From NCBI GenBank assembly GCA_018060945.1, contig JAGOVB010000001.1, positions 5,238 through 69,237 of the forward strand: DNA of 64,000 nucleotides, written 5' to 3'. This document shows positions 28,163-50,334 of the stretch, piece after piece. The DNA comes from Minisyncoccota bacterium (lineage in GTDB: Bacteria; Patescibacteriota; Minisyncoccia; Phycocordibacterales; PALSA-1337). The notes beneath the pieces were generated by a model that was given only the letters and a program-made list of their open reading frames with translations, ran no database searches and was not told the origin of the DNA. The position numbers and the translations under genes were made by a program. Each line of letters opens with the position of its first letter. Position 1 is the stretch's first letter.

Positions 28163-28702
28163 ATGCAAGAAGAAAAAAAGCAAAACTTGATACCCAATAG
28201 TACGCAGGTCCCAAACTTGATTCTGGATTTGCTGATCCCTCAAATTCCTGAGGGAGAAGCGCGCTGTCTTTTATACATCTGCCGCCGGACATTCGGTTTT
28301 CATAAGGAAGAAGACAATATCAGTTTTACACAATTTCAAAACGGCATCAGAACAAGCCAGGGAAGATTACTCGACTTGGGTACAGGAATGTCTCGACCAG
28401 CGGTTAATAACGCACTCCAAAACTTAAAAAAAGCGGAGGTAATTTTCGTGCAAAAAAGATCGATGGGGAATCGATACCGACTCAATCTCGAAATAGATGT
28501 GGATAAAGTAGTAAACGTAATTAACCAGTTAAGAAAGTTAACCGGAAGTGGTAAACGAAGATTACCAAAAGTGGTTAACGAAGTTAACACACAAAACCTA
28601 GTGAAAAAAGAGAAACCTAGTATTAGGGACCCTATGAATAAGTTATCCACAGAAATGAGGAATCTCACTGAAAAGATGACCATTAATCGCTTTAAGCATT
28701 AA
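28163..28702 (+). CDS. Replication-initiator-like wHTH protein (RepA_N / DnaD-like)
   Basis: PNLILDLLIPQIPEGEARCLLYICRRTFGF...ISFTQFQNGIRTSQGRLLDLGTGMSRPAVNNALQNLKKAEVIFVQKRSMGNRYRLNL follows the RepA_N / phage replisome-organiser N-terminal pattern. Confidence 0.5.
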   Translation: MQEEKKQNLIPNSTQVPNLILDLLIPQIPEGEARCLLYICRRTFGFHKEEDNISFTQFQNGIRTSQGRLLDLGTGMSRPAVNNALQNLKKAEVIFVQKRSMGNRYRLNLEIDVDKVVNVINQLRKLTGSGKRRLPKVVNEVNTQNLVKKEKPSIRDPMNKLSTEMRNLTEKMTINRFKH

Positions 28703-28781
28703 CAACAAAAATGAACACAAACATAAATACAAAATGCGCTTTGAAAGGTCGAAATTATCAATCAGTAATAATCAGCAACTA

Positions 28782-29981
28782 ATGAAATATCTTAGCCTGT
28801 TTTCCGGTATAGGCGGATTCGAGCTAGGAATTCTTAACGCGCATGTGGAAGCAACTCACAGAAAGACGAACAGAGGAGGCAAAGAAACTGAGAAGACTCG
28901 GGGTGGTAAAAGATACTCGAAGTCTGAAGGTTCTGATCCCAAGGGACGACGAGCTCGCCAACACAATCACCTCGGCGGCTCACGACAAGAACCGTTTACT
29001 TGCGTGGGTTACTCCGAAATCGACAAGTACGCCGTTGAGATTTACCAAAAGCGATTCCCTGAACATAAAAATTATGGAGACATCACAAAAATCAAACCAA
29101 GTAAGCTCCCCGACTTCGATCTACTGGTCGGAGGATTTCCGTGCCAGGCTTTCTCGATTGCTGGCAAACGGAAGGGCTTCAAAGACACCCGAGGTACGCT
29201 CTTTTTTGACATTGCACGCATTCTCAGAAGTAAAAAGCCAAGGCTTTTCGTTTTGGAGAACGTCAAAGGATTGCTATCTCATGACAGTGGCAATACTTTC
29301 AAGACCATTATCTCCACGCTTGCAAAATTGGGGTACGACATTCAGTGGCAGGTGCTTAACTCTAAGAATTTCGGAGTCCCTCAGAATCGGGAGCGCGTGT
29401 TCATTATTGGACATCTTAGAGGAACAGCCCGACCAAAAGTATTTCCTTTCACCGAAAACAACAGCGAGGATATTGTCCTACCAACCATCACGACACGAGT
29501 TACAGCTGACTCAAACGGAACTTATGTTGGTAAAAGATCGCCACGTCAAATAATCGGGTCCAGAAGCCAAGGTGATCGAGTGTATGACCCAAGTGGTATT
29601 TCGGTTACTCTGGCGTCCCAGGCAGGCGGTCTGGGGGCTAAAACGGGGCTGTATGCGGTGAAGATAAAGGAAGCGACAAAGAAGGGTTATGCCGAAGCAA
29701 GACCTGGTCAGGCGATAAATCTGGCGGTCCCAAACAGTAAAACAAGACGAGGGCGAGTAAGTGATGTGGCTCAGACTTTGGACACGAGTATGCAGCAACA
29801 CACGCTCACCCCTGATATGAAAATCCGCAGACTTACTCCGAGGGAATGCGAACGACTCCAAGGCTTTCCGGATGGGTGGACGGATGGCGTGAGCGATTCG
29901 CAGAAATATAAGACCTTAGGCAATGCAGTGACAGTCAATGTGGTCGAAGTGATTATCAGAAAAATAATCTCCTCACTTTGA
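28782..29981 (+). CDS. DNA (cytosine-5)-methyltransferase with about 55 aa low-complexity insert after motif I
   Basis: Motif I LFSGIGGFELG, motif II VGYSEIDKYAVEIY, motif IV GGFPCQAFSIAGKRKG, ENVKGL, and C-terminal GNAVTVNVV. A basic Gly/Lys/Arg-rich insert (HVEATHRKTNRGGKETEKTRGGKRYSKSEGSDPKGRRARQHNHLGGSRQEP) sits between motifs I and II. Confidence 0.8.
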   Translation: MKYLSLFSGIGGFELGILNAHVEATHRKTNRGGKETEKTRGGKRYSKSEGSDPKGRRARQHNHLGGSRQEPFTCVGYSEIDKYAVEIYQKRFPEHKNYGDITKIKPSKLPDFDLLVGGFPCQAFSIAGKRKGFKDTRGTLFFDIARILRSKKPRLFVLENVKGLLSHDSGNTFKTIISTLAKLGYDIQWQVLNSKNFGVPQNRERVFIIGHLRGTARPKVFPFTENNSEDIVLPTITTRVTADSNGTYVGKRSPRQIIGSRSQGDRVYDPSGISVTLASQAGGLGAKTGLYAVKIKEATKKGYAEARPGQAINLAVPNSKTRRGRVSDVAQTLDTSMQQHTLTPDMKIRRLTPRECERLQGFPDGWTDGVSDSQKYKTLGNAVTVNVVEVIIRKIISSL

Positions 29982-29985
29982 TGCC

Positions 29986-30366
29986 ATGCAAAACATTAAT
30001 AATCCTCGTCACAAACTGGTCCCTCAACAGATTCAAGAATTGCAAAGGCTTTTCGAAGATGAGGGGTGGAGACTTAATTGGCTCTCCGTATTCTTCAAAG
30101 TCCATCGTAGCTCGATCATCTTCCACATTCGCTTTAATGGCTGGGTCCGGAGGATGAAAGTGCTCAGACACATGCCAAAAGAGATTGCTGAAATTTATCG
30201 CCTGAGAAGAAAGCAAAAATACGAGAATAAGTTCAGAGGCTCCTACGATTACATCAAGAGGGTAAATGAGCAGAACAGGATAAATAATTGCGGACATATC
30301 AGGTGGGTTAAGCGATGCAGTCTCTGTGGCGAAATCTTAGGATCAGACGCCATACACAATCATTAA
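29986..30366 (+). CDS. Hypothetical phage protein with C-terminal Cys/His cluster
   Basis: CGHIRWVKRCSLCGE...HNH suggests a zinc-binding or HNH-like small protein. Confidence 0.35.
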   Translation: MQNINNPRHKLVPQQIQELQRLFEDEGWRLNWLSVFFKVHRSSIIFHIRFNGWVRRMKVLRHMPKEIAEIYRLRRKQKYENKFRGSYDYIKRVNEQNRINNCGHIRWVKRCSLCGEILGSDAIHNH

Positions 30367-30381
30367 TTAATTTAAACATTT

Positions 30382-30789
30382 ATGAAAAAACAAAAAGCAA
30401 AAACAGAAGTGAAGCATACACCGAATCCGATCAATCTCTCGGCTCGTTTTCTCACCGCTCGCCCCGATCTGGTAAGCGCTTGGATTATCGGAGCACACAG
30501 TCTCATTGCGATATTTAAATCTGAACATAGGGAAGGAATCATCGCATATCTTGAGACGGTCCAAGGAGAGTTCTTTTCAGCACTTCGCCATCATTGGGAA
30601 AAGAAATACCCAGACCAGAAGCTTACCTACACATTCGGCACGATCTGCCGGAATCGAAAGGGTATGGAGCGTTTGGTAATTGGTATTCAGCCGACAGAAA
30701 AGAAGAAGCCAGCATATGAGTACATTGATGATGATGGAAAGGTCGGCGCCTGCAATGAATCGAGTATGGTGGGCTGGATGGAAAAATAA
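30382..30789 (+). CDS. Hypothetical phage protein
   Basis: 135 aa ORF in the phage early/packaging region. Confidence 0.35.
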   Translation: MKKQKAKTEVKHTPNPINLSARFLTARPDLVSAWIIGAHSLIAIFKSEHREGIIAYLETVQGEFFSALRHHWEKKYPDQKLTYTFGTICRNRKGMERLVIGIQPTEKKKPAYEYIDDDGKVGACNESSMVGWMEK

Positions 30790-30797
30790 ATCAACCA

Positions 30798-31427
30798 ATG
30801 AATGAGAAATTGCAAAAAAGAGAACCATATCGACCACTTTCGGTCCCTGAAAAGGAACTCTTATTTGCGATGTACGACAAGCATAACGGCAATTTGATGG
30901 GCATGATTCGGGATAGAGAGTGTGTTTACAAGAGCCGGACTCAGCTTAGCTACTACAAAGGGCTCTATCATTTTGCCGAGCATTTAGTGCATTTAAGAAC
31001 GAAAAGGAACGCTGAAGTGCTGAATTCTCTCAAGGATTCGAAGATTTTAGCCATCCAGCAAGCTATTCAGATGATTGAGACTCGTCAGGTTCCACTCAAG
31101 AATAAGCAAGGAGACCTAATCTTAGACGCAGACGGTCAGCCAATGTTTTATTCAGTGGGTCCCGACCATAAGGAAATAGAGATGGCTTGGAAGATCATTA
31201 AGACCGAGTTGGGTGAACCTACGACAATCGGTAAGCATGACCACACATCCAAGGGTGAACGGATAAGGAGCTTGGTCGAATTAAACGAGAAGGAATCAGA
31301 GGATCATGAGTCAATATTTAAACGAGATGCTAAACAAACAACCGACAACAACATTGAAACCAGTGACAGCGGAGGGGTTAAAGACTCTCCGGATGGCACG
31401 GAAGGAGGCGCGTACGAAACACGCTAA
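30798..31427 (+). CDS. Hypothetical protein, positional candidate for terminase small subunit
   Basis: 209 aa, immediately upstream of and overlapping the large terminase gene. Assigned by position only. Confidence 0.3.
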   Translation: MNEKLQKREPYRPLSVPEKELLFAMYDKHNGNLMGMIRDRECVYKSRTQLSYYKGLYHFAEHLVHLRTKRNAEVLNSLKDSKILAIQQAIQMIETRQVPLKNKQGDLILDADGQPMFYSVGPDHKEIEMAWKIIKTELGEPTTIGKHDHTSKGERIRSLVELNEKESEDHESIFKRDAKQTTDNNIETSDSGGVKDSPDGTEGGAYETR

Positions 31428-33006
31428 AGAGCATTTTGGGTACTTCCTCGCTTACTATTTACCGCATTATGTGCGGACTGAATTCGCTCCTTATCACTAC
31501 GATATGATGGGCGACTTTCACGATTTAGTAGAGATGAAAATAAATGAGCTTGCTTGGTTTATGTACCGAGAAAGTGCAAAAACAAGCTTTGCCAAAGGAG
31601 GCATTCTTTATCTTCTTGCATATGGCTTGGCTGAATATCCGAATGTGGACTCACTTGATGGTGATAACAGCGAAAGAATCCTATATGACGTAACATGGGA
31701 GCTTCAAACAAATAAAAGATTCATTAATGATTTCGGGGAATTACATGTCGGCAAGAGAACTCAGGATCAAGTAAGTCAAAAACGAGTCTCTAACTTCGTT
31801 ACCAACCCACTTTACAAAGAGGATGGAACGATCGAAAGAATAGGTGCTCGAGTTGAAGCTCATACCACAAATGAAGACGCTCGAGGATTTCAACATAACA
31901 GCAAGCGCCCAGACTTCCTATTGCTTGATGACTTTGAGACAAAGAAAAGTGTGCGTAGCGAAGTGATGACAAAGTCTGTTCGTGATCACATCGGAGAATT
32001 CAAGGGAGGTATTGCAAGTGAGGCTCAAAGAATTCTCTATCTCGGTAACTATTTCAGTGAGTATGGAAATATTCAAAGTATCATCAATCGAGCGGATCAT
32101 GACCCAAAACTCCGAGTACGCATTGTACCAATCTGTGAGGGAAGCCTAGGAGATTTACACGATCCTACATGGCCACAGAGATGGGTTCTGACTGATAAGG
32201 AGGCAGAGCTTACAGGCAAGGCAAGCATCGAATCGAAACAGAGAAGCATGTGGACACCTGAAGAAGGTGACACTGACTTTCAGGCTGAAATGCTCTGTCA
32301 GCCAATCGATGAGACAAAGACAATATTCAAGCGTGAATGGTTCATGCCTGTCACATGGGATGCACTCATGCAGAAGAAGCTCGCAGCATACGTGACTATC
32401 GACACACCGAGCAGAAAAGAGGATGGCGGAGTCAGCAAGGATGGAGATTTCGTAGGAATCTGTGTGAATTGGGTCGATAGAGAGGGTAAATGGCATTTAA
32501 AAGCATGGAGAGAAAAACTAGGTCCCACAGCGATCATCGAGAAGATGTTCGGAGTCTATAACTTCCTTATTCAGGCAGGTACACCGCCTATCAAGTTCGG
32601 ATGGGAAGATACTGCATTCACTCGAGGACTCGAGCCGATGCTCCGACATGAACAGAGAATGCGTCAGACATTTCTACCTCTCATGTGGCTCAAACATGAA
32701 GGCAGATCGAAGCAAGACCGAATTCGTACAGGATTACTCTATCGATACGAGACTCGTAGTATTTATCACCTCGAAGGTGAATGCAGAGACCTTGAAAATG
32801 AGTTAGTTCGCTTTCCTGACGCAGAACATGACGATACAAGTGATGCAACTGCATATCAAAGCGATATTGCACGTCCTGCCGGAGTGGAAAAGCCTCGAGA
32901 AGCTAGACCAGAGAGAGTGATGGAGACTCCATACGGCAAGGCGAAGCCTGCATACGAAGACGAATTGGTCGATGAAGGTCCTCAATACCCTGATATCGGT
33001 ATCTAA
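31306..33006 (+). CDS. Terminase large subunit
   Basis: N-terminal ATPase with a Walker-B-like FLLLDDFETKKS, a C-terminal RNaseH-like nuclease region with acidic residues, and the typical 566 aa size. The true start may be the internal ATG at 31393. Confidence 0.7.
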   Translation: MSQYLNEMLNKQPTTTLKPVTAEGLKTLRMARKEARTKHAKEHFGYFLAYYLPHYVRTEFAPYHYDMMGDFHDLVEMKINELAWFMYRESAKTSFAKGGILYLLAYGLAEYPNVDSLDGDNSERILYDVTWELQTNKRFINDFGELHVGKRTQDQVSQKRVSNFVTNPLYKEDGTIERIGARVEAHTTNEDARGFQHNSKRPDFLLLDDFETKKSVRSEVMTKSVRDHIGEFKGGIASEAQRILYLGNYFSEYGNIQSIINRADHDPKLRVRIVPICEGSLGDLHDPTWPQRWVLTDKEAELTGKASIESKQRSMWTPEEGDTDFQAEMLCQPIDETKTIFKREWFMPVTWDALMQKKLAAYVTIDTPSRKEDGGVSKDGDFVGICVNWVDREGKWHLKAWREKLGPTAIIEKMFGVYNFLIQAGTPPIKFGWEDTAFTRGLEPMLRHEQRMRQTFLPLMWLKHEGRSKQDRIRTGLLYRYETRSIYHLEGECRDLENELVRFPDAEHDDTSDATAYQSDIARPAGVEKPREARPERVMETPYGKAKPAYEDELVDEGPQYPDIGI

Positions 33007-33011
33007 ACAAA

Positions 33012-33036
33012 AGTAATGCACGCAATTTTGCATTTT
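33012..33036 (+). promoter_or_regulatory. Copy 1 of conserved 25-nt hairpin motif AGTAATGCACGCAATTTTGCATTTT
   Basis: Exact repeat also at 36276 and 41137. AATGCA/TGCATT 6 bp stem, 8 nt loop, then a T-run. Located 6 nt after the terminase stop and 24 nt before the portal start. Confidence 0.6.
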
Positions 33037-33059
33037 CTAAACCCCATACTGAATCCAAT

Positions 33060-35069
33060 ATGGCATTAGCCCACTACAAGAAACGAGACACGCTTTCCAC
33101 TCAAGCTCTCAAAGAGATTGATTATTCGTATCGATACAAGAAAGCTCGAATGAGCTCTTGGAATAAGAACGAGGACATGATGAATCCTGATCGCACAAGT
33201 CCTGCGGTTGTTTCTCCCTACGGAGGTAGCACCTTCCAGCAAGCTGGTGACACTCGAGCTCAAGTACCTCTCTACAAGATGCACGGATTTGTTCATACGA
33301 TTCTCTCAAAGATTGATAGTCCTCTCACATTTAAATACGTAAAGGGAGAATCGGCAGATTTGAAGAAAGCGAAGCTTATGAATGCGATCAAGGATAAAGA
33401 TTCCAAGGTAGGACGTTGGAACTTCAAAGATTTGATGGGCAAGAGAGATGCAGCAATCTACGGCCGAACAATTTATTTGTACATGACCCGAAATGACAAA
33501 GGAGTTTATAAGAGCCTTTTGAATTTAATTGATCCAAAAGACTTCCTTATTGATCCAGACGTAGGAGGTCTTTGCACGGAAGAAGAAGATGGGAGCGGAG
33601 TTGAGAAAGCAGCATATCTCGGATGGTGGAATACCAAGCTCACTCGAGCTCAGCTTACTCAGGGAATCAAAGATGGGATTTACTACAAGAAAGTTGTTGA
33701 AGAATTGCTTGATGGGGGAGGAAACAATACTACTAAGACTCAGCAGGATATTGATAAGGACAATCGAAAGATCAATGGAGCTCCTCGAGAGCGTTTCAAG
33801 AACGAGAACCAGTTTATTTTCTATACATGGATCACCACTGACGAGAATGATGATCGATACTATCTAGTTCTCACTCCATCGGGTGACTGCATTCGATGCG
33901 AACCCTGGAAAGAAATTCGAAAGAGTGAAAGATATCCAATCTGGACATGGGCAGCATTTCCAGATCCTCGAGAGTTCTGGACACCTTCATATTGCGATTA
34001 TGCACGAGGTATCTTCATGGCTCAGGAAAAGAGCATCAATCAGTCACTTGATAACTCAGAGCAAATTAACAGACCTCAAACCGCTGTAAACGTAGACTAC
34101 GTTCGAAATCTTGCTCAAGTTAGATATCGAAAGGATGGATACATTGAGATTGAAGGAAATATCGATGTGAACAAAGTGCTTCAGACACGCCAGACACCCC
34201 CGATCCAAGGTCCTTTCATGGTCTATGACAAGCTCGAAACAATTGTTGAAGGTGAAAGCGGAGTGACTGCTGGAGTCAAAGGAGTGGGTAACGAAGATAC
34301 TCTCGGAATCTACGAAGGAAATATTGCACAAGCAGGTGATCGCTTCGGACTTTTGAATAAGAGTTATGCCGAAGGTTACTACCGATTTGCAGTTCTTCAC
34401 AAAGAAGGTGTCATGCAGGATTTGAAGAAGAAAACAGCAGTTCAAATTCTCGGTCCTATGGGTCTTGAGATAGAAATGGTTACCTCAAGAGATCTAAAGC
34501 CGTATCAGAACGATTACGACATTCTCGTCGAATCAAGTAATGCTGAAGCTCAAAACAATGCAGTTGAAAGCAAGAATAAGATCACGTTCCTCGGAAACTA
34601 TAAGGGTGATCAGAACATAAATCAGAAAGTTCTTTTTGAAACTCAAGCAGCGATTGCAGGAGTCGATGACGATACAGTCAAAAGACTTCTCGATACGAGT
34701 GACTACGATGCAATCGAAGTAGTAGCTCAAGCTGATGAAGCCTTTCAATTAATTATCGGTGGGGATAAAGCTCCAATTTACAAAGATGCCAATACTGCAT
34801 TCTTGCAGAGACTACATGATCTCTCCGATAAGTTCGATCACGAGCTCACTCCTGAACAGCACGGTGCTGTGTTTGCCTACATCGAGCAAATAACTCCGAT
34901 TGTAGAGCAAAATGCTGCACGTTCGGTTGTGGCTCAGGCAGCGAAGCAAGGCATGATCAGTAATCCAGGTGATGCGGTCGATATTACACCTCCTGGTGAA
35001 AAGATTGATCCTGCCATGCGAGGTGATCCTGTGGCAGATGCGGCAAAAGCCGTAGCATTAACAAAATAA
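33060..35069 (+). CDS. Putative portal protein
   Basis: 669 aa protein directly downstream of the terminase, of portal size and position. No direct motif proof. Confidence 0.5.
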   Translation: MALAHYKKRDTLSTQALKEIDYSYRYKKARMSSWNKNEDMMNPDRTSPAVVSPYGGSTFQQAGDTRAQVPLYKMHGFVHTILSKIDSPLTFKYVKGESADLKKAKLMNAIKDKDSKVGRWNFKDLMGKRDAAIYGRTIYLYMTRNDKGVYKSLLNLIDPKDFLIDPDVGGLCTEEEDGSGVEKAAYLGWWNTKLTRAQLTQGIKDGIYYKKVVEELLDGGGNNTTKTQQDIDKDNRKINGAPRERFKNENQFIFYTWITTDENDDRYYLVLTPSGDCIRCEPWKEIRKSERYPIWTWAAFPDPREFWTPSYCDYARGIFMAQEKSINQSLDNSEQINRPQTAVNVDYVRNLAQVRYRKDGYIEIEGNIDVNKVLQTRQTPPIQGPFMVYDKLETIVEGESGVTAGVKGVGNEDTLGIYEGNIAQAGDRFGLLNKSYAEGYYRFAVLHKEGVMQDLKKKTAVQILGPMGLEIEMVTSRDLKPYQNDYDILVESSNAEAQNNAVESKNKITFLGNYKGDQNINQKVLFETQAAIAGVDDDTVKRLLDTSDYDAIEVVAQADEAFQLIIGGDKAPIYKDANTAFLQRLHDLSDKFDHELTPEQHGAVFAYIEQITPIVEQNAARSVVAQAAKQGMISNPGDAVDITPPGEKIDPAMRGDPVADAAKAVALTK

Positions 35070-35082
35070 TTAAAATAAATTT

Positions 35083-35421
35083 ATGACTGAATCAAATAAT
35101 GTAAAGTTCGTAGAAGATAGCAATAAATGGCTCTGGAAGCGATATGACCAGAACGGATCGGTAATTTATCGAAGTCCTTTGTTCGATACTGAGCGTCTCG
35201 CTCGAGAAGATTATGAACAGTATGGTGATAAGGCTCACACCAATCCTCAAGCTGATGCTCCTGTCCAAGAAGAATCGGCGGAGGTAAAGGGGGGAGTGAA
35301 TGTTGCCTCACCAACTGATACTGCTCCTCAAGATGAAATGGCGGCTGGTAATACTACTCCAGAAGGAGAAGTTGGTGCAGGGAGTGCATCTCCCACTGAG
35401 TCAGAAGCTGGCTTGGTATAG
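35083..35421 (+). CDS. Hypothetical acidic phage protein
   Basis: 112 aa with an acidic/Pro-rich C-terminus, in the head-morphogenesis region. Confidence 0.35.
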   Translation: MTESNNVKFVEDSNKWLWKRYDQNGSVIYRSPLFDTERLAREDYEQYGDKAHTNPQADAPVQEESAEVKGGVNVASPTDTAPQDEMAAGNTTPEGEVGAGSASPTESEAGLV

Positions 35422-35448
35422 TAAGGTCATATATCTCATTGTCATACC

Positions 35449-35823
35449 ATGCTAGCCTTCACATACAAAATTAAGAGAAAAGCCAAGGATAAGGGCGACT
35501 ATCGCATTACAAAGCACGGCCAAGTTGCAGAATTTTCTTTGCGTGAAATGAGCCGTAATGTTGAGCAGGTTCGCAAGCAGGCAAGGGAAATGGAGGCTAA
35601 CGCAAAACTTCAAGAGGCTCTAGCTGACAACATCCGTCGAGCGAATCGTGACCTTGTAGTATGGATAAAAAAGCTGTCTCCAAAAAAACGATACGCTCTC
35701 ACCATGCTTGCCATCCAAGAAAACAAAGCAAAGCAATTCAAGGATCAGGAAAAGATGGCAAAAAGCATTCTTAGGACTCTTTTATCAGAAGATAAAGTCG
35801 TACGTAACCAACTAAAGCTATGA
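35449..35823 (+). CDS. Hypothetical phage protein (coiled-coil)
   Basis: 124 aa, charged and helical. Confidence 0.35.
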   Translation: MLAFTYKIKRKAKDKGDYRITKHGQVAEFSLREMSRNVEQVRKQAREMEANAKLQEALADNIRRANRDLVVWIKKLSPKKRYALTMLAIQENKAKQFKDQEKMAKSILRTLLSEDKVVRNQLKL

Positions 35824-36212
35824 GCGAACCACAAGAAACACAACCCGAACTTACTGGTCCGCACAATGCCGATCAAGAAGTAGACCCAGAGAAGCAAGCA
35901 GCTGAAGAAGCTGAAGTTGAGGAGCTCAATGATGCAATCGATGTGACGAGCGATCTTGTCTCCTGGTCCAAGACTCCTGCCGGTAAGGACACGATAGAGC
36001 GTCTTCAAACTGAATCTCGTAAGGCGATGAACGAACTCTTTGCCGTTCTCCATGACAGTCCAGAGCTAGGGAAATTAATATCAGTTGTAGCTCGATTTGA
36101 AGCGTCGGTGCAGATGCTCAGACGATTTATCGGAGCAGACGAAGACTTGGATACCTTACTCGATGAACTTGCTAGGAAGCGACCTAGTGCAGCAGCTAAG
36201 GTTGCGAAGTAA
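35820..36212 (+). CDS. Hypothetical acidic phage protein
   Basis: 130 aa, highly acidic, with an ATGA overlap to the previous gene. Confidence 0.35.
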   Translation: MSEPQETQPELTGPHNADQEVDPEKQAAEEAEVEELNDAIDVTSDLVSWSKTPAGKDTIERLQTESRKAMNELFAVLHDSPELGKLISVVARFEASVQMLRRFIGADEDLDTLLDELARKRPSAAAKVAK

Positions 36213-36275
36213 AGAAAAGATAAAGTATTTATCAAGAAAAAATCATCAGGAAACTGGTGATTTTTCTATTCCAAA

Positions 36276-36301
36276 AGTAATGCACGCAATTTTGCATTTT
36301 T
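36276..36301 (+). promoter_or_regulatory. Copy 2 of conserved hairpin motif AGTAATGCACGCAATTTTGCATTTTT
   Basis: Identical 25-26 nt to the copies at 33012 and 41137. Lies 64 nt after the 36212 stop and upstream of the scaffold-like gene. Confidence 0.6.
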
Positions 36302-36421
36302 CTGGCATCACACTATCAGCATAGAGGGGCCAACCTCTTTTATTAAAAAGGTTAATGCGCTAATGCTCTGCGTTCCACAATCGAGCATCAATGGGGCGAA
36401 ACCATTGAAAATATAAAACGT

Positions 36422-37273: not shown

Positions 37274-37317
37274 TTGATTCTGGAAGGGTAAATTTATTCA
37301 CTTAATTTTATCCAACC

Positions 37318-38520: not shown

Positions 38521-38532
38521 ATGCTGCACTGA

Positions 38533-38581: not shown

Positions 38582-38604
38582 CTCTGGCACTGAGAAATAA
38601 AAAT

Positions 38605-39234
38605 ATGGCAACACCACTTACCGGACAACAAATTATTGAAAGATTCGAGTTGTATACAGATGATACGACTGATCTTTCGAGTGATGAGGAACTTATTCTT
38701 GCCAATGACAAGATTCGCTTGGTGTACATGGAGCAACCTTGGGAATTTCTACGCAGGAAGAAGTCAGGGGCAGTAGAGATAGACGGAAAAATTACTTTAC
38801 CAATTGATTTTGATGAATTCCTAGAAAACTTTAGTGACGATCCAACAATCGGTGAGCCAATTATGAGGGTGGTCTATATAGGTAGTCAGAAAGCTCCGTA
38901 TCTCGTGGTGCCTATGGGTCAGAGAAATGCCAATAACTTTAGCAATGTCTGTTGGATTGATCCTTCTGATGGAAAAATAAACTTCTCACAGAATCCTGGC
39001 ACTGGTGCCTCTTACGAATATGACTACAAGACAAGCCCTGATGACATCACAGTAGGTACATCTCCAAAACTTCCTCCTGAATACCATCCAATGATTGTAT
39101 TCTCGATGCTTATCGATGAAGACATCATCAAGAAGTCTGAGAAGGCTCGAAGCAACATGCAGGACAATGCGGTTCAGTATCAGCGCTACATGAAAAATCT
39201 AAAGTTGCGAGATGCTCGCTTTAAACTTGCGTAA
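38605..39234 (+). CDS. Hypothetical virion protein (head-tail adaptor candidate)
   Basis: 209 aa, immediately after the capsid gene. Assigned by position. Confidence 0.35.
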   Translation: MATPLTGQQIIERFELYTDDTTDLSSDEELILANDKIRLVYMEQPWEFLRRKKSGAVEIDGKITLPIDFDEFLENFSDDPTIGEPIMRVVYIGSQKAPYLVVPMGQRNANNFSNVCWIDPSDGKINFSQNPGTGASYEYDYKTSPDDITVGTSPKLPPEYHPMIVFSMLIDEDIIKKSEKARSNMQDNAVQYQRYMKNLKLRDARFKLA

Positions 39235-39239
39235 TTTAT

Positions 39240-41138: not shown

Positions 41139-41162
41139 TAATGCACGCAATTTTGCATTTTT
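41137..41162 (+). promoter_or_regulatory. Copy 3 of conserved hairpin motif AGTAATGCACGCAATTTTGCATTTTT
   Basis: Overlaps the TAG stop of the 39240 gene, 20 nt before the next gene. Confidence 0.6.
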
Positions 41163-41181
41163 CCACATTCATACTTACAAC

Positions 41182-41955
41182 ATGGCATCCAAACTCACTA
41201 AAGTAGTCGCAAACTTCGAAACATCTCTTGCCACAAAGCTAGCTAACGGGGCTACTTCAGGTGCTCTTACGAGCATCACTGACAAAAATAGTGTAGCCCT
41301 TCCTGCTGGCAAATATTGCATGATCATTGACCGAGGAACCGGTGACGAAGAACATCTCCTGTTCGATCTCTCAGGTACAGCTATGAGCAATATCTTTAGC
41401 GTTTCAAGACAAGGTGTCCAAACTGCTGGAGTCCAAAATCTCAATGGCCATAGAGCAGGATCAAAATGCTATCTCACCGATTTTGTGAACCTCAAAGTCA
41501 TTGTCGACATTCTGAATGGCGCCGATTCTCTCGATTCAGCAAATCCTGTGAAATATGATGCTGATCCGACTTTCAATGATTCAAAGCAAGTTGTCTCAAA
41601 GGGATATGTAGATGTGAACCTAGCCGGTAAAGCATCAACAAACGGAAACAATACCTTCACTGGAAATAATAATTTTATAAACTCTCCGAATGTTCCCAAT
41701 GCGGTAAGCGCATCACAGCCCGTAACACTCTCACAGCTCATGGCTGCTGCGCTAACTGGTATTCAGGCAGGACTTGAGTATGTCGATATCGCATTAAATG
41801 CTGACGGAAGCGTCAGGTCCCTTCATGACAACGTGAATGGAAAGACGATTGTGTTTGAGTACGACGATAACCGATTGCTTCGAAGCATCTATGACGGCGT
41901 GAAGAAGTGGTCAGTTAGAGCTGTCGATGAGAGGATCGCAAGCATTATTCATTAA
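41182..41955 (+). CDS. Hypothetical virion protein (fibre/adaptor-like)
   Basis: 257 aa, Ala/Ser/Asn-rich. Confidence 0.35.
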   Translation: MASKLTKVVANFETSLATKLANGATSGALTSITDKNSVALPAGKYCMIIDRGTGDEEHLLFDLSGTAMSNIFSVSRQGVQTAGVQNLNGHRAGSKCYLTDFVNLKVIVDILNGADSLDSANPVKYDADPTFNDSKQVVSKGYVDVNLAGKASTNGNNTFTGNNNFINSPNVPNAVSASQPVTLSQLMAAALTGIQAGLEYVDIALNADGSVRSLHDNVNGKTIVFEYDDNRLLRSIYDGVKKWSVRAVDERIASIIH

Positions 41956-41969
41956 TTTAATTTTTTAAC

Positions 41970-44048
41970 ATGATTAATTTACAAGTAGATCGAAGGTTAG
42001 ATAAGACGACAATAGTTAAAGGGCAACAGACTGTACCTTTCCCTAAATTTGTCGAATGGGATAGACCAGGAATGGCACAATGGCCTGCCGTTAAAGCGCA
42101 AGGGAAACTCACTATGCCGAATCAGCCCTCAGTGGGAGAGACGATCACTCTCGGCATAAAAACATACTCTTTCGTGGCAAGTCTTGTTACCAATACTGAT
42201 GGTCAGATTGTGATTGGTGCCAGTGTTGCGGCTACTCGTGCAAATATTATGGCTGCTGTGAATCTTTCGGGTCTACCTGGAAGTCAGTATGCAACCGCAA
42301 CCTCTCTTAACGGCGATGTGGAAGTAACTTCCATCTCAGGAAATGACATTTTCTTTACTGCAAAAGTAGGTGGTACCGCAGGAAACTCCATAGCATCAAC
42401 ATCCACACTTGTCGCTCCTAACGTATTTGATGCATCGACTCTTGGAACTTACCGAGCCGGTGCAGCCGCAAGTGATGCTGACTCCTTGATCATCCCCGGA
42501 TACCGAGGATGCTTCAACAACTATGTGAATAATATGTACAACAACCGAGAAATGTTCTACGTCGGCCGAGCATCATGGGATGGCGATGAAGACAGAGCAT
42601 TCGGTATTCAAAATGAACTTCTGCGAGAGTTTCCTTTCCATGAGTATTTCATAAGTCCTGGTGCTACTCGAAAGATGTATGCAATGAACTTCATTGAAAA
42701 GAGGGTAAAGAGTGTGAAAACTCTGACGATGTACACAAAACTTAGAGATATAGAGACTCAGACACTCTCATCGCCATTTGCCAAATCAACAAGTAACGTC
42801 GTCTTTAAAACTCTTGAACTCGACGCAACTCGATTTATAACTTTCTACCGTCAGCAAGCAGGTACGACAGGAATCTATGCAGTTGTAGGAAATACAAATG
42901 CAAACGGAACGATCACATGGGGTGCTCCGCTTCTCATGTACACAGTCGACTGGTATAACGAAAACTTTGATGCGGTGGTAATTAATACCGACAAAGTTTT
43001 GATGGCGCTTCCAAATGGAGGATCGAACTTTATTCACACAGCCGTTCTCACAATTTCTGGAACTGGTATCGCCCTCAACACACCGGTCCAGGTTGTAGCA
43101 CTCGCACCAGCATATAAGCAGCTTGTGAAGGTTGGAACTGATAAGGCAATCCTAGCCTTTGAAAACGGTGGTGCGATTAACCTCTATTGCGTTTCAGTTT
43201 CTGGAACCGTTCCATCATACGGAACACTCGCAAGCGTCGCTTCAACATCAAAACCTCACCTTGCTCCAAACGGAACTGACAAATGCCAGATTGCATACAT
43301 TGGCTCGGGCGGATGGTATTCAGCTGTAGTTACGACCTCAGGAAGCACAATCACAGTACAGGCCGGAGTCCAAATTAGCTACGATGCAAACTTTCAGTAT
43401 CGACATATTTGGCTATTTCCACTAGCGACAGATACTTTCGTTTTCTGGAGTCATTGGGGACAGGTTCAATTTCAAACTAGAGATCGATACAAAATGGGAC
43501 TCATAACTGTTTCTGGTACGAACACAACTCTTGCAAGCAGCACCTACGTTCCGTGTGGCTGGTGGGGAAACATGATGTATCCAAAATCGATAGATGCAAC
43601 AAACTTCTATCTTTATCGCTTCGAGAATAGTCGTATCACAGGAGGAAAGGTCACATTAAGTAACGGATCTCTATCACTCGCCAACATGCCATACAAAGGA
43701 TTTGGTTGGAATGAAAATGATGGAGGTCAGGCAAATTACAGATATCAGCAATATAACAACATGCCTCAAATTGCTGATCCTGTGAGTTGTAATGGCAACA
43801 TGTTTTTCATTACTACTGACAACAATATGAGTGGTCAGTTTGCTGTGTACAGTGACAGGTCGTTTAGCTTCGATCTTTACAACGGGGATGATTATTTCGG
43901 TACATTCACAAAATCTGATCTTGGGTTTATGCAAAAGATTGTTGTCGATATTCCGATTGGTAAAGAAGAATTTGGTCTAAAGATAAAGAGCAATGACAGC
44001 GTAGTACGCACTGCAATGATCGATCACATGTATCTGATAACTGATTAA
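41970..44048 (+). CDS. Hypothetical large virion protein (tail fibre / receptor-binding candidate)
   Basis: 692 aa, Gly/Thr/Ser/Asn-rich with many aromatic residues, typical of beta-rich tail proteins. Confidence 0.4.
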   Translation: MINLQVDRRLDKTTIVKGQQTVPFPKFVEWDRPGMAQWPAVKAQGKLTMPNQPSVGETITLGIKTYSFVASLVTNTDGQIVIGASVAATRANIMAAVNLSGLPGSQYATATSLNGDVEVTSISGNDIFFTAKVGGTAGNSIASTSTLVAPNVFDASTLGTYRAGAAASDADSLIIPGYRGCFNNYVNNMYNNREMFYVGRASWDGDEDRAFGIQNELLREFPFHEYFISPGATRKMYAMNFIEKRVKSVKTLTMYTKLRDIETQTLSSPFAKSTSNVVFKTLELDATRFITFYRQQAGTTGIYAVVGNTNANGTITWGAPLLMYTVDWYNENFDAVVINTDKVLMALPNGGSNFIHTAVLTISGTGIALNTPVQVVALAPAYKQLVKVGTDKAILAFENGGAINLYCVSVSGTVPSYGTLASVASTSKPHLAPNGTDKCQIAYIGSGGWYSAVVTTSGSTITVQAGVQISYDANFQYRHIWLFPLATDTFVFWSHWGQVQFQTRDRYKMGLITVSGTNTTLASSTYVPCGWWGNMMYPKSIDATNFYLYRFENSRITGGKVTLSNGSLSLANMPYKGFGWNENDGGQANYRYQQYNNMPQIADPVSCNGNMFFITTDNNMSGQFAVYSDRSFSFDLYNGDDYFGTFTKSDLGFMQKIVVDIPIGKEEFGLKIKSNDSVVRTAMIDHMYLITD

Positions 44049-44055
44049 AATATTA

Positions 44056-45651: not shown

Positions 45652-45652
45652 A

Positions 45653-47953
45653 ATGCTTACACGATTACAAATACAAGATAATATCGATGCCCTAGAAGAA
45701 CAGGGAGCAAGCCAGGATGAAATTCAGGAGTGGCTTGATAGTTTACCTAAACAATCCTCACAGGCTGAACCCGAACCTCCGAAAAAGGAAGGGATTTTTA
45801 AAAGGATAGGAAAGGCCATCATTTCAAGCGAGCTTAAATTTGGTAAAAGCATTGCTGATGCCATGCCTTCGTTTGTGCCAGGAAGTGCGGCGTGGACGAA
45901 CAAGCAAAATGAACAGATTATGGCAAACCAACACGCCATGATGGAAAACTTATTGGTCCAAAGAAAGAAGCTCAAGGCTGAGGGTAAAGATACCTCACGT
46001 ATCGATGCCGCAATTCAAGATATGCAGGAGCAAATGAGTAAGCCTGCAATCGATATTAATGAGACAAATGCTTCAGTAAACAAAACAGCTAAACAAGTCT
46101 TTGGTGAAGGTCTCGGTGTGGCAGCAGACATCCTCTCGGCTGGATCATATGGAAAAGCAGCTCAAGGCGCTCAGAGTGGCAAGTTACTTATTGCAGGCAA
46201 GGCTTCCGGAAAGGTTGCGAATGTTCTCGGTAAAGCAGGAATTCAAAGTACAGTCTCACCGGCTGCAGGTGCGCTTCCAAGCATCATCGGTGGAGGTACG
46301 AAGGCTCAGGCTGCGCTCAAAGGTGCATGGCAAGGTGCAAAACAAGGATTCACATCCGGTGCAGTCTTTGGCACTGCCCAAGGTGCCACTCGAGCAATGC
46401 AGGATAACAAAGAAAATATCGACATTGTATCTGATGCGATTACTGGCGGTGTGGTTGGAGGTGTTGCCGGTGGAGTAGTTGGTGGAGTTGTGGGAGGTAC
46501 AAGCGGATACATCAATCGTCGTAGGGAAATAAATAAATTGCTAAAGCCTGCCATGACACCGGATGAGACGATGAATTCTCTTCACAAAGAAATTGCTACT
46601 CATGCCGATGAGACTTCATTTAAGACATCTATTCAAAAAGGTGATCTTACAATCGATCAGGTCTATCAAAAGAATGGTGCTCTTAATCCTGAACTTGCGA
46701 AAGGTAGGATTGATGATATTGCAGCAAACCTCGATCTCAAGGTCCCAGGTGCTGGAGAAAAATATAGAACTCTCATTGATCCGAATAATACGAGCTTCGA
46801 CGAGCTTATTTCAAAAGCCGATGATGTTATCGATGAAAGCAGGAAGATTCCTGTTGAAGCTATTAAATACACAGTAAATGCTGAAGGCAAAAAAGTATTT
46901 GATACAAAAGCAAACGAGGCTCTCAAGGCAGGTATTGCAGATCAAGACATAGCCTTTATTAAAAACGCCTCTGCTGCAGATAAAAAAATATTTGATAAAG
47001 CGATGAAGGTTGCTGAGCAGGCATCAAAAGATAAGACCTACGCACGTCAGCCCGTTGAGCAAGCAGGTAAAGTTATCATTGACCAAGCAAACACCGTAGA
47101 AAATGCTCGCATGAAAGTCGGGTCCGAACTTGGTATTGTTCGCTCAAAACTCGCAGCTGTACCAGTTGATGTGACTGACACTGCACAAAACTTCTACGAT
47201 GATCTTGCAGATGCAGGTATCTCTGTTGGTGACGACGGTCTCGATTTCTCTAAGTCAAAATATGCGAATGTTCCTAAAATTCAGAAACTGGTCGAGAGTG
47301 TTCATCAGCGATTAGTGAGTGCAGGGGATACACCGAACGTAAAAACTGTAGATATGATTCGACAACAACTTGGTACTGAAGTTGATCTAGGAACTCTTGA
47401 AGGAAATCTCGATAAGAGTGCAAAGCGAATCTTGCAAAAAGTTTATGGAGGCTTGGGAGAAAATATCACCTACATTGATCCAAAATATGCAGAACTCTCA
47501 GATCAATATTCAAAGCTTACAAGTGCGATGGATTACTTCCAGAGAGCTCTCGGAAAAGACTTTGATGCAACCAATATTAATTCTGCGTTGAAAGCAGGTG
47601 AAGTCGGCCGACGAATGCTTGGTAACGCTGCATCTCGGCCGCTGGTTGTGGTTGAAAACATCCAAGACCTTGCACGAGCATATGGCTACAATCCCAATGT
47701 TGACTCTCGTAGTCAAATTCTCTTTGCAAGCTTCCTAGAAGACCTCTTTGGCACTACTCAATCCCAGAGTCTACAAAGTCAGATGACAAAGGGGGTTAAT
47801 GCAGCCGAAGAAGCCACAGGAGCTCTCACAGACGCTGCTACAGGTAACGCAAGCGGACTTATGTCCAAAGCACTCCGAAAAGGCATAAATCTGGTCCGAA
47901 ATATCACGCCAGAGCGACAAATTGAGGCTGTAAGGGCTCTTATTACCCCATAA
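45653..47953 (+). CDS. Tape-measure-like / internal virion protein (Gly-rich repeats)
   Basis: 766 aa, mostly alpha-helical and charged, with a GGVVGGVAGGVVGGVVGGTSG repeat. Lies just upstream of the lysis cassette. Confidence 0.45.
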   Translation: MLTRLQIQDNIDALEEQGASQDEIQEWLDSLPKQSSQAEPEPPKKEGIFKRIGKAIISSELKFGKSIADAMPSFVPGSAAWTNKQNEQIMANQHAMMENLLVQRKKLKAEGKDTSRIDAAIQDMQEQMSKPAIDINETNASVNKTAKQVFGEGLGVAADILSAGSYGKAAQGAQSGKLLIAGKASGKVANVLGKAGIQSTVSPAAGALPSIIGGGTKAQAALKGAWQGAKQGFTSGAVFGTAQGATRAMQDNKENIDIVSDAITGGVVGGVAGGVVGGVVGGTSGYINRRREINKLLKPAMTPDETMNSLHKEIATHADETSFKTSIQKGDLTIDQVYQKNGALNPELAKGRIDDIAANLDLKVPGAGEKYRTLIDPNNTSFDELISKADDVIDESRKIPVEAIKYTVNAEGKKVFDTKANEALKAGIADQDIAFIKNASAADKKIFDKAMKVAEQASKDKTYARQPVEQAGKVIIDQANTVENARMKVGSELGIVRSKLAAVPVDVTDTAQNFYDDLADAGISVGDDGLDFSKSKYANVPKIQKLVESVHQRLVSAGDTPNVKTVDMIRQQLGTEVDLGTLEGNLDKSAKRILQKVYGGLGENITYIDPKYAELSDQYSKLTSAMDYFQRALGKDFDATNINSALKAGEVGRRMLGNAASRPLVVVENIQDLARAYGYNPNVDSRSQILFASFLEDLFGTTQSQSLQSQMTKGVNAAEEATGALTDAATGNASGLMSKALRKGINLVRNITPERQIEAVRALITP

Positions 47954-47999
47954 AGTAATGCACCACTTTTTGCCAAAAAGTGGATTTAAGCTTGGGGTA
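47944..47999 (+). terminator. Nested stem-loop carrying a variant of the AGTAATGCA motif
   Basis: Outer stem TACCCCA/TGGGGTA, inner stem CCACTTTTT-GCC-AAAAAGTGG (9 bp). It overlaps the TMP stop and ends at the ATG of the next gene. Confidence 0.45.
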
Positions 48000-48280
48000 T
48001 GGATAAAACAGAAGGATTTAAGAAATTTCTATATAACCAGGTCTCATTGGTGATCGGAATTGTAGGTGTGACATTCGGAATCTTTAATATGCTTCAAACT
48101 CCTCAGACCGATATTAAGGTCATCGAGGCTTTGAATAATATTCGAGATAACCACATCCACACAATTGAGGAAAACGTAAAACGAATTGATCAGGAAAATC
48201 AAAATCAGTACAGAGATATGAGTGAACGTATGACAAGAATTGAAACAATTCTCAACGAGCGATTACCAGTTAAAAAATAA
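47999..48280 (+). CDS. Holin candidate (single TM helix plus coiled coil)
   Basis: 93 aa with TM segment VSLVIGIVGVTFGIFNML, immediately upstream of the amidase. Confidence 0.35.
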   Translation: MDKTEGFKKFLYNQVSLVIGIVGVTFGIFNMLQTPQTDIKVIEALNNIRDNHIHTIEENVKRIDQENQNQYRDMSERMTRIETILNERLPVKK

Positions 48281-48283
48281 TTT

Positions 48284-48889
48284 ATGAATATTCCATTTCA
48301 ACAGACTCCAAACTACGCAGTCGGTCCCACAAAGAAAACAGTGGTAGTCCTTCATTTCACACTCGGGGCGTACAGAGGAGCGGTAGAGTGGCTATCAAAT
48401 GCTAACCGGCCGAACCGATCATCAGCTCATTTCGTAATAGGTCGCAATCAAGGTGAGGCGGTGCAACTCGTAAAGGTTACTGACATCGCATGGCACGCCG
48501 GTGCGGTCAGTAATCCAAATGAACGTGCAAAGCGTGTCATGAGAAAGAATCTTGATGGCACATGGGTCAACCCAAATCAGTACACAATCGGGATCGAATT
48601 AGCTGCCGGATATGACGTGGATCAGGATGGTGCGGTCGAGCCAAACGAAAATGACATTACAGAGTGGCAGTATCAGCAGCTCACAGAACTCGTAAGGGCA
48701 TTTGCAAACAATCCAGACACTGCATTTGTCCTGGATGAGAAAAATATCATCATTCACGGAGATATAACTGACTACAAAGAGAAGCCTGAAATAGTTCGTA
48801 AAGAACTTCTCAAGAGATTGTTTCCGGTCCAGCCAAGTAACAAAGAGGCAATCAAATCTCAGATCATCAGCCTCTTGAATCAACTATGA
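48284..48889 (+). CDS. N-acetylmuramoyl-L-alanine amidase (endolysin, Amidase_2/PGRP type)
   Basis: SSAHFVIGRNQGEAVQLVKVTDIAWHAGAVSN and surrounding blocks match the amidase_2 zinc-amidase fold. Confidence 0.8.
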   Translation: MNIPFQQTPNYAVGPTKKTVVVLHFTLGAYRGAVEWLSNANRPNRSSAHFVIGRNQGEAVQLVKVTDIAWHAGAVSNPNERAKRVMRKNLDGTWVNPNQYTIGIELAAGYDVDQDGAVEPNENDITEWQYQQLTELVRAFANNPDTAFVLDEKNIIIHGDITDYKEKPEIVRKELLKRLFPVQPSNKEAIKSQIISLLNQL

Positions 48890-48983
48890 GGTACATATCG
48901 CAAACCCTAGTAGCATTGGCAGCATTTCTATTTGCGTATGCGATCTGGCTCGAGCACGTGCATTAATAATTAACAAAATATTT

Positions 48984-49163
48984 ATGAGTAAAATTTATAC
49001 ATCAGCAAGCAAGATCGTTTTCATTCTTATGGCAGTGGCAGTAGTTGTTGGAATGTTTTATGGAAAGGTGGATGCCAAAGATTTTATGATCCTGGCTTCA
49101 ATGGCATTTTCATTCTACTTCGCCAACAAAGGAGAAAATAACGAGCCTTTTGCAGGTAAATAG
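48984..49163 (+). CDS. Small two-TM protein (alternative holin candidate), not in supplied ORF track
   Basis: 59 aa MSKIYTSASKIVFILMAVAVVVGMFYGKVDAKDFMILASMAFSFYFANKGENNEPFAGK. ATG at 48984, TAG at 49161-49163. Two hydrophobic helices. Confidence 0.35.
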   Translation: MSKIYTSASKIVFILMAVAVVVGMFYGKVDAKDFMILASMAFSFYFANKGENNEPFAGK

Positions 49164-50330: not shown

Positions 50331-50334
50331 TTTT

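Follow-up and report, generated by a model that had tools for sequence, protein, structure and literature searches.

A probable prophage behind rpsI in a Paceibacteria genome and its relatives at other host genes

Gene content of the block downstream of rpsI

The stretch analysed here, called the window throughout, is 64 kb of a metagenome-assembled genome (MAG), and the subject of this work is a block of phage genes that follows the ribosomal protein gene rpsI. Proteins encoded in the window were exact matches to MBP9701362-MBP9701409 of a Candidatus Pacebacteria/Paceibacterota bacterium MAG (locus tags KBD47_), among them RpsI, YchF, the RepO initiator, the capsid protein, a 766-amino acid (aa) phage protein and an Hsp70-like protein. 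An original prediction made from the sequence of the window had described the block as a compact prophage in a reduced-genome host resembling the candidate phyla radiation (CPR). The guess about the host agrees with these matches, and the flank was found to be as compact as described, with an alanyl-tRNA synthetase of 581 aa and compact ribosomal proteins. Judging from the numbering of the locus tags, the MAG contig probably also ends at ~64 kb.

The left flank is housekeeping DNA, consisting of tRNA-Ala, ychF (7133-8167), leuS and alaS followed by infA-rpsM-rpsK-rpsD-rpoA-rplQ-rplM-rpsI, with the rpsI stop codon at 27,822. All sizeable open reading frames (ORFs) of the window lie on the + strand. 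This includes the large ORFs of 28,163-49,163, whose order and common orientation were as originally predicted. Genes of the phage block (28,014-49,163) are tightly packed, and its GC content is above that of both flanks (0.43-0.49, compared to 0.39-0.43 in the left and 0.37-0.39 in the right flank). Coordinates and family matches are collected in Table 1; related loci are designated by L numbers.

The early genes begin with a 42-aa membrane ORF, close to which the contig of the relative L007 ends (window-equivalent 28019). The initiator that follows was predicted to be RepA_N-like; its Pfam and PHROG matches instead place it in the Rep-O type, and it is named 'replication protein' at NCBI (MBP9701385.1). 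The methyltransferase was identified as predicted. No Pfam or PHROG match was obtained for the 126-aa and 135-aa proteins. In another relative (L126 162-3518; IMGVR_UViG_3300049489_000672, 35.6 kb, portal 79%), RepO is replaced by a 710-aa PD-(D/E)XK-FtsK/HerA fusion and an IstB/DnaC-like ATPase, showing that the replication module is exchangeable within the phage family.

The packaging and head genes include a candidate small terminase, whose allele in the window was without a match, and a large terminase for which we preferred the start at 31378 because it gives a protein of 542 aa, as in the relatives. The latter is at most 26% identical to the large terminases of cultured phages, and its ratio of nonsynonymous to synonymous substitution rates (dN/dS) relative to L007 was 0.013. 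A metagenome search returned 1281 homologues of the portal protein, and tblastn against 50,697 phage records returned none; looking up the exact portal sequence of the window gave no entry. Both the terminase and the portal had been called correctly. The three small head or neck proteins (112, 124 and 130 aa) had no family match in Pfam or PHROG. The gene predicted to encode a scaffolding protein does precede the capsid gene, but the label itself was not confirmed: weak PHROG matches are to families of unknown function, and its position is the basis for keeping it as a candidate. Sequence searches of the PDB with the portal, large terminase, adaptor and RepO proteins gave no meaningful match.

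The capsid sequence had no match in Pfam, in the PDB (single sequence and profile) or in the 50,697 phage genomes. An AlphaFold2 (AF2) model of the protein, with a mean predicted local distance difference test score (pLDDT) of 80.6 and a predicted template modelling score (pTM) of 0.78, was compared with the PDB using Foldseek, and the top 50 matches were all HK97-fold phage capsids (E 4e-11 to 1e-7, prob 1.0). From this model we conclude that the product of 37318-38520 is the predicted major capsid protein, with an HK97 fold. It is 92-98% identical among copies of the element and has >600 metagenome homologues. The original statement that several structural proteins lack recognisable relatives thus holds for cultured phages and the PDB, but not for metagenomes, in which portal homologues exceed 1000.

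Downstream of the adaptor gene, the 632-aa protein had no family or PDB match; its position makes it a candidate nozzle or tail hub. The genes for the 257-aa and 692-aa proteins exist as two allelic types among otherwise similar copies (81-93% compared to 40-67% identity), and this mosaic pattern together with their position suggests a receptor-binding role. The predicted LysM protein was recovered. For the 766-aa protein the prediction of a tape-measure-like function was unsupported: the all-alpha AF2 model is of low confidence (pLDDT 60) and its fold search gave no match, and the virion appears to be of a podovirus-like type lacking tape-measure genes. A Gly-rich hydrophobic core segment in this protein and a weak PH_gly_zipper match in its relatives make it a candidate internal or ejection protein. 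In the lysis cassette the amidase was confirmed, whereas the holin is a candidate, being a 93-aa membrane protein encoded beside the amidase. No tail-tube, sheath or tape-measure gene was found in the block. As the portal and adaptor are of the SU10 type and these tail genes are lacking, the gene content points to a short-tailed, podovirus-like virion.

Table 1. Features of the window and of the right flanks of related copies
Feature	Position	Strand	Evidence
Left junction region: hairpin, T run, left-end motif	27823..28013	+	Sequence reading
42-aa membrane ORF, first gene of element	28014..28142	+	Read from sequence; 90% nt identity in L007
Replication initiator, Rep-O-like winged helix, 179 aa	28163..28702	+	Pfam Phage_rep_O 7.4e-9; phrog_678 5.9e-19
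Phage C5 cytosine DNA methyltransferase	28734..29981	+	Pfam DNA_methylase 2.8e-89; phrog_116
Two small conserved proteins, 126 and 135 aa	29986..30789	+	44-99% conserved in all relatives
Candidate small terminase, 209 aa	30798..31427	+	Position directly before large terminase; relatives' equivalent matches DUF5681
Large terminase, 542 aa from likely start (ORF opens 31306)	31378..33006	+	phrog_38 4.9e-42
Late motif copy 1, before portal gene	33010..33058	+	
Portal, SU10 type	33060..35069	+	Pfam SU10_portal 1.3e-12, 47 bits (30-bit curated cut-off)
Three small head or neck proteins	35083..36212	+	Position and sequence conserved in all relatives
Late motif copy 2 and structured 5' leader of ~100 nt, before scaffold gene	36274..36421	+	
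Candidate scaffolding protein, 283 aa	36422..37273	+	Position before capsid gene only
Major capsid protein, predicted HK97 fold, 400 aa	37318..38520	+	AF2 and Foldseek
Head-to-tail adaptor, SU10 type	38605..39234	+	Pfam SU10_adaptor 2.7e-6, 28.4 bits (27-bit cut-off)
632-aa virion protein, candidate nozzle or tail hub	39240..41138	+	Follows adaptor; 89-95% conserved
Late motif copy 3, before 257-aa gene	41135..41183	+	
257-aa and 692-aa proteins, candidate tail fibre or receptor-binding module	41182..44048	+	Mosaic alleles and position
LysM-domain virion protein, 531 aa	44056..45651	+	Pfam LysM 1.3e-12
766-aa all-alpha protein, candidate internal or ejection protein	45653..47953	+	AF2 model; exact match KBD47_00270
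Late motif copy 4, degenerate, before lysis genes	47952..47973	+	
Lysis cassette, opened by holin candidate	47999..49163	+	
Amidase_2 endolysin	48284..48889	+	Pfam Amidase_2 4.2e-18; phrog_1863
26-aa membrane ORF	48886..48966	+	Sequence
59-aa membrane protein, last ORF of core	48984..49163	+	Sequence
BpuJI-like type IIS restriction-modification system: C5 methyltransferase, restriction endonuclease, C5 methyltransferase	49257..52796	+	Pfam; PADLOC MTase_II and REase_II
Tyrosine recombinase fragment, first 218 codons, cut by window end	63345..64000	+	Pfam Phage_integrase 2.8e-8
Right flank of L006 and L192: ResIII helicase and methylases			
Right flank of L009: two methylases, AAA_13, DUF2779			
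Right flank of L097: NYN, PD-(D/E)XK, methylase, reverse transcriptase			
Right flank of L099: methylases and 1265-aa protein			
Right flank of L103: Mod/Res			
Right flank of L193: C5 methylase			
Right flank of L194: NYN and Mod-like protein			

Insertion sites and spread between hosts

A metagenome scan with RpoA recovered 80 related contigs (62-75% identity), all with the order alaS...rpoA-rplQ-rplM-rpsI. In the 41 contigs that extend past rpsI, the following genes are grpE, a ~105-aa ORF, dnaK, dnaJ and trpS; none of them carries any phage gene (L017 was also checked with Pfam). The next ORF starts 26-151 nt downstream of rpsI in six relatives and is either grpE or a small unannotated ORF before it. 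Relatives with the same genes at the same locus and no insertion signature had been named as evidence that would speak against a prophage. The 41 contigs without phage genes came out in favour of insertion.

Close relatives of the element, with portal proteins 76-93% identical, occupy other sites. Copies lie after ychF in L001 (789 kb), L003, L010/L009 (147 kb), L091, L101/L103 and a 36-kb ENA contig, and after gap in L002 (687 kb); ychF of the window itself has no prophage behind it. One of these contigs, L009, is from 'MAG: Candidatus Paceibacteria bacterium JTS-AC154'. The left ends of L001, L003, L010, L091, L101 and L002 share one layout, in which the host stop codon is followed by a hairpin, a T run, ~24 nt, GGTCGAAaTTATCAGCAA and the first ATG. 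When four ychF junctions were aligned, L091 and L010 differed throughout ychF and were 100% identical from GATATAA, the last codon and stop, onward, indicating that the ychF copies begin at the stop codon and bring the following terminator hairpin with them. The left-end region of the ychF type runs from GATATAACAACACCATCTTCTA... through GGTCGAAATTATCAGCAA. In the window, a hairpin at 27,871-27,893 with a T run to 27,898 lies downstream of the rpsI stop codon, and the ATG of RepO is ~265 nt further on. The original placement of the start 270 nt after the terminator was therefore accurate as a distance from hairpin to RepO, but by analogy with the ychF copies this hairpin is probably element-borne and the element probably starts at the rpsI stop codon, terminator included.

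Between hosts with a copy at ychF, YchF is 53-71% identical (aa), and the genes upstream of ychF differ. For the same pairs of hosts the capsid is 92-98% identical, the portal up to 99.6% and RepO up to 98%. As the proteins of the element are far more alike than the host YchF proteins, the element spreads horizontally and site-specifically; vertical inheritance at ychF was considered and is ruled out by the same identities.

The ~22 ORFs of the block are full length relative to those of the relatives. Comparisons with L007 and L103 gave dN/dS values of 0.013-0.063 in 13 of 16 gene comparisons, with no internal stops, and dS was saturated in the other three. The intactness of the window copy is informative because decayed copies exist elsewhere: L002 is frameshifted, with the portal, adaptor and 632-aa genes split, and L006 has a 3.7-kb deletion that removed scaffold, capsid and adaptor. 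L007, from a different sample, is 90% identical at the nucleotide level over 10.7 kb, and dS along this comparison varies from 0.08 to 0.92. Exchangeable alleles were seen for the 257/692-aa genes, the small terminase and the left-end genes, a sequence mosaicism as is typical of infectious phages. Because the block contains a full head, packaging, neck and lysis set with a predicted HK97-fold capsid, is absent from 41 related rpsI-grpE junctions, and has close relatives at ychF and gap, we conclude that it is very probably an integrated phage genome, i.e. a prophage-type mobile element.

Two runs (L004/L005; Logan ERR12387303, ERR12387302) yielded the same 36,329-nt contig with circularly permuted starts, which is probably a complete free-phage relative. 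Its portal and capsid are 61% and 73% identical to those of the window, and it also encodes S-adenosylmethionine (SAM) synthetase and several methylases.

The ychF locus of the window has a history of its own. The ~770 nt between ychF and the next gene (8168-8940) contain a 181-aa ORF without a family match, whose product was otherwise located only on a 1.2-kb contig, a tRNA-like 3' fragment (gcgagttcaatcctcg, ~8850), a terminator and, at 8909-8940, an in-frame pseudo-copy of the ychF 3' end (EDGGAIEFKV*). This was the only such pseudo-end found, and it is unrelated to the position of the prophage. The left end of ychF-type prophages carries an inverted copy of the same ychF codons. The region looks like the scar of another element once integrated in the 3' end of ychF, which would make ychF a recombination hot spot in the host lineage.

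Right end, defence genes and competing explanations

The similarity shared by all copies extends as far as the stop codon of the 59-aa ORF (49,163 in the window) and no further; five flanks compared past this point had no right-terminal sequence in common. What follows are restriction-modification (R-M) or other defence genes. All ten independent right flanks that were read open with such genes, never with ordinary housekeeping DNA (Table 1). The flank genes are in part shared between diverged copies (L006/L192, 82% nt identity; L097/L194, 69%) and are then as similar as the phage cores or more so. Several contigs start exactly at the left end and run unbroken for 13-35 kb past the lysis genes. 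It is likely that the defence genes form a variable cargo arm of the prophage.

Further to the right, 52956-58045 of the window, where relatives have grpE-dnaK-dnaJ, holds a four-gene cassette encoding proteins of 172, 830, 487 and 200 aa. The 172-aa protein is membrane-anchored with a sub-threshold GrpE match, the 487-aa and 200-aa proteins are unknowns, and the 830-aa protein is Hsp70-like; its cluster (at least 90% identity) contains another five proteins of 830 aa, each on a short contig. We rejected the possibility that the GrpE-like and Hsp70-like genes are displaced grpE and dnaK, since the Hsp70-like protein resembles DnaK at only 34% identity, confined to the ATPase domain, and GrpE was without a match. 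PADLOC gave no match for the cassette, which could be an uncharacterised defence or stress system. Next, at 57999-60314, are an AAA ATPase matching PADLOC IetA (3e-33), a 106-aa ORF and an S49 peptidase gene. The S49 gene (64-69% identical) recurs in L008/L009 (21367-22146), where the prophage occupies a different host gene, at a distance of 8 kb to the right of the core; its presence beside copies at two host genes hints that it travels with the element. A tRNA-Arg(TCT) gene at 62079-62151 adjoins the tyrosine recombinase fragment, and a match to the Rfam LOOT RNA lies on the - strand at 62719-62836 (82 bits, gathering score 46). The recombinase at 63,345 could be the integrase of this prophage, but a separate tRNA-linked island was judged more likely. 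No homologue of the fragment was found by tblastn among 191 related loci (2.1 Mb), and scans of IMG/VR with the integrase fragment and with the S49 peptidase gave no match.

The combined results suggest the following explanation. The Rep-O-type initiator would recruit the host replisome, the C5 methylase would protect the phage's own DNA, and the late genes would be expressed as four units, each behind the same motif. The phage family moves between quite different Paceibacteria, integrating in one orientation at the very end of ychF, gap or, here, rpsI, where it would replace the last codon or stop and supply a new terminator. Directly after the lysis genes each copy carries a different R-M or defence set, in this case the BpuJI-like system. 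Since the core contains no recognisable recombinase, the integrating enzyme may be a product of the variable arm further to the right, a host enzyme acting in trans, or a protein that went unrecognised. We consider it reasonably likely that the block is, as this explanation has it, intact and probably still an active temperate phage with a variable defence cargo arm.

Several results weigh against this explanation. Integrase, excisionase and CI-like repressor genes had no Pfam or PHROG match in the 21-kb core of the window or in >20 relatives, so the classical lysogeny module is missing. Position 49,163, given as the end in the original prediction, delimits only the conserved core, and the nearest free-phage-like contigs are ~35-36 kb long, so the 21-kb core may be less than the whole genome. 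Repeats of att type were sought between 27.76-28.06 kb and both 48.9-49.3 kb and 52.7-53.0 kb by repeat search, 10-mer sharing and blastn-short; none of at least 10 nt connects these junction regions, which share only chance-level 7-9-mers. Neither a displaced rpsI nor a displaced ychF 3' end was present in the available right flanks. The empty-site comparison is not a base-for-base match, as the closest relative has 75% RpoA identity and the window has no grpE or dnaK. The lack of a canonical grpE-dnaK-dnaJ downstream of the block implies that the locus was remodelled by more than one event. Among candidate mechanisms, a test for integrative mobile elements exploiting Xer (IMEX) at dif sites failed, as the insertions follow rpsI, ychF and gap at their 3' ends; the cumulative GC skew shows a monotonic rise over the window with no terminus-like switch, and no dif-like palindrome was recognised by eye at the junctions. 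A weak pair of inverted repeats seen in L101/L103 (E 0.001 and 0.004 for its two blocks) is A/T-rich and absent from the L010/L009 and window pairs, and was not accepted as established.

The recombinase at the window end raises the possibility, which we regard as real but doubtful, that the element is a larger composite of ~36 kb, extending from the rpsI stop codon to ~64 kb and made up of the core, an accessory arm (R-M, Hsp70-like cassette, IetA-like AAA ATPase, S49 peptidase, tRNA-Arg and LOOT RNA) and its own integrase from 63,345 onward. A Phage_integrase-family ORF would then lie 36 kb from the left end, with a GC content of 0.44 like that of the core, and free or complete-looking relatives are of similar size (35-38 kb, including the circularly permuted contig). 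The long extension of left-end contigs past the lysis genes, the co-inherited defence genes in every right flank, the S49 peptidase to the right of the 59-aa ORF, at a distance of 8-10 kb, both at the rpsI site of the window and at the ychF site of L008/L009, and the absence of synteny to relatives over 49-64 kb fit as well. However, a tRNA followed by an integrase is the classical sign of a separate island in the tRNA that extends rightwards, the GC content of 49-62 kb (0.37-0.39) is unlike that of the core, and the recombinase has no homologue in the related loci. Moreover, in L009, L097, L099, L103, L192 and L194 no integrase was seen in the 9 kb to the right of the core, and a repeat of the rpsI 3' end is absent from all sequence up to 64 kb. 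The missing recombinase can also be taken at face value, with the family integrating site-specifically at housekeeping-gene stop codons by means of no known recombinase type (a host enzyme in trans or a new integration protein among the small ORFs) and each copy having a swappable defence arm; in this strong form the proposal seems to us unlikely.

Loss of the integrase and regulators is also what a cryptic, defective remnant that no longer excises and decays in place would show, and decayed relatives do exist (L002 and L006). We consider a remnant distinctly improbable, as the ~22 ORFs are full length with dN/dS of 0.01-0.06, L007 from another sample is closely similar, and the same integrase-less set occurs at a precise site, with >90% identity, in hosts that differ in genus or family, which is impossible for a dead remnant. 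The lack of a lysogeny module combined with strong purifying selection and wide occurrence in one bacterial class would likewise suit a domesticated particle system kept for the benefit of the host, similar to a gene transfer agent or a tailocin. Such a system is very improbable given three different loci, no co-divergence with the host (92-99% for element proteins compared to 53-71% for YchF) and absence from the 41 related rpsI loci; in addition, the block combines its own initiator, methylase, terminase pair and lysis genes, and its receptor-binding alleles are swapped as in infectious phages. Finally, the source is a MAG and the contigs of relatives often break at the left junction, as might be seen if a free phage contig had been misjoined to a CPR contig. 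A chimera of assembly or binning is nevertheless extremely improbable because host-phage junctions occur in independent NCBI, JGI, ENA and Logan assemblies, on contigs of up to 789 kb, and because in the window the sequence is continuous on both sides of the block, with the same strand bias and no coverage-independent oddity, with host genes on the left and non-phage genes and a tRNA on the right.

Putative regulatory elements and comparison with known systems

The motif preceding the late units, AAGTAATGCAC-N5-TTTTGCATTTT...CATACT, has three exact 25-mer copies in the window (0.01 expected) and a degenerate fourth. It is kept at the same four positions in all integrated relatives, and its spacing is unlike that of a sigma-70 promoter. 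Most likely it is a phage-specific late promoter or activator site. The copy before the scaffold gene is followed by a leader (window 36323-36421) that is conserved in L001, L003, L010, L101, L097, L002 and L004 and is without an Rfam family. Two predicted hairpins in this leader, AGAGG-GGCCAA-CCTCT and GATGG-GGCGAAA-CCATC, have the general form NNNGG-GGCNAA(A)-CCNNN, with compensatory changes to the first in L004, a distant relative. The leader is a candidate translational operator or processing site. Another motif, GGTCCAATTATCAGCTAA, is located at 27984-28001 ahead of the first gene, with a second copy, AAAGGTCGAAATTATCA, at 28744-28764 just after RepO. It precedes the first gene in every copy of the element and is a candidate early promoter or iteron; a scan of IMG/VR with this motif gave 8 chance matches and no related genes.

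Prophages of Paceibacteria have been reported from aquifer MAGs (PMC12455944), and CPR viruses were predicted to be mostly lysogenic with Paceibacteria as the main host (PMC12647753). The element described here resembles those in host class, in being a tailed-phage genome in a very small genome, in carrying a C5 methylase, and in lying beside genomic islands and R-M systems. The surveys differ in describing ~44-kb co-binned viral contigs, with lifestyle assigned from integrase-type marker genes; in our case a 21-kb core lacking such markers is inserted at the stop codon of ychF, gap or rpsI, and spread across hosts is demonstrable. Our literature search, whose coverage is incomplete, found no paper on this phage family. 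A CPR prophage is therefore known as a kind of object, and the family itself is without a cultured or deposited relative.

The portal and adaptor fall above curated cut-offs in the same Pfam families as those of Escherichia phage SU10 and other Kuravirus podoviruses, and the order portal ... capsid-adaptor-large tail protein implies a short-tailed virion as in that phage. In contrast to SU10, a virulent phage with a genome of ~77 kb, the element is integrated and apparently temperate, its core is about a quarter of that size, and no phage polymerase or sigma factor was found in it. Since its portal and capsid have no detectable similarity to any of the 50,697 deposited phage genomes, the relation to SU10/phiEco32-type phages appears to be one of protein fold or family and not of genus membership. 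The replication genes are comparable to lambdoid modules in having an N-terminal Rep-O winged-helix domain and, in relatives, a RusA-like gene right after the initiator, and the repeated motif flanking the initiator gene could be an iteron or early promoter. They differ in that the initiator has a length of only 179 aa, a loader of the P or DnaC type is missing from the window copy, and the motif lies outside the gene, unlike the lambda origin.

In prophages and satellites such as P2 and P4, a conserved backbone has one fixed site at which the anti-phage cargo varies. The hypervariable slot at one end of the present element, with R-M, ResIII helicase, NYN/PD-(D/E)XK, reverse transcriptase or AAA_13 genes, is similar, except that the slot may or may not lie within the element and that few defences are known from CPR bacteria such as this host. 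Conserved 3' ends are also used as safe harbours, glmS by Tn7 and tRNA, tmRNA or gene 3' ends by many integrases. Insertion in a single orientation at the very 3' end of highly conserved genes, with gene end and terminator restored, follows this pattern and would make very different hosts available, whereas no transposase, TnsD-like protein, integrase, target duplication or att repeat was identified here.

CPR bacteria, or Patescibacteria, make up a large share of bacterial diversity; few have been cultured, there are no genetic tools, and their phages are known almost only from surveys. The locus offers a concrete example of a probably temperate phage family that is widespread in Paceibacteria. 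As it stands, a prophage in a MAG is a good find but one of an expected kind, and the points of interest are the missing integrase despite precise integration in several hosts and the defence arm. A truly absent integrase would mean that the integration mechanism is new, and if each copy does carry a swappable defence arm, the family would be a main vehicle of anti-phage immunity in CPR bacteria. The ychF integration site is known to the base and works across very different hosts, which could be useful for a CPR integration vector.

Two minor observations concern host genes. A 383-aa protein encoded in the host flank beside ychF in L003 (1210-2361, - strand) has a weak AcrVA2-like Pfam annotation. 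In the window, the leucyl-tRNA synthetase ORF (10010-12997, 995 aa) is unusual for this enzyme in that a NUDIX hydrolase domain (residues 442-555, 1.8e-13) follows the editing domain as an insertion.

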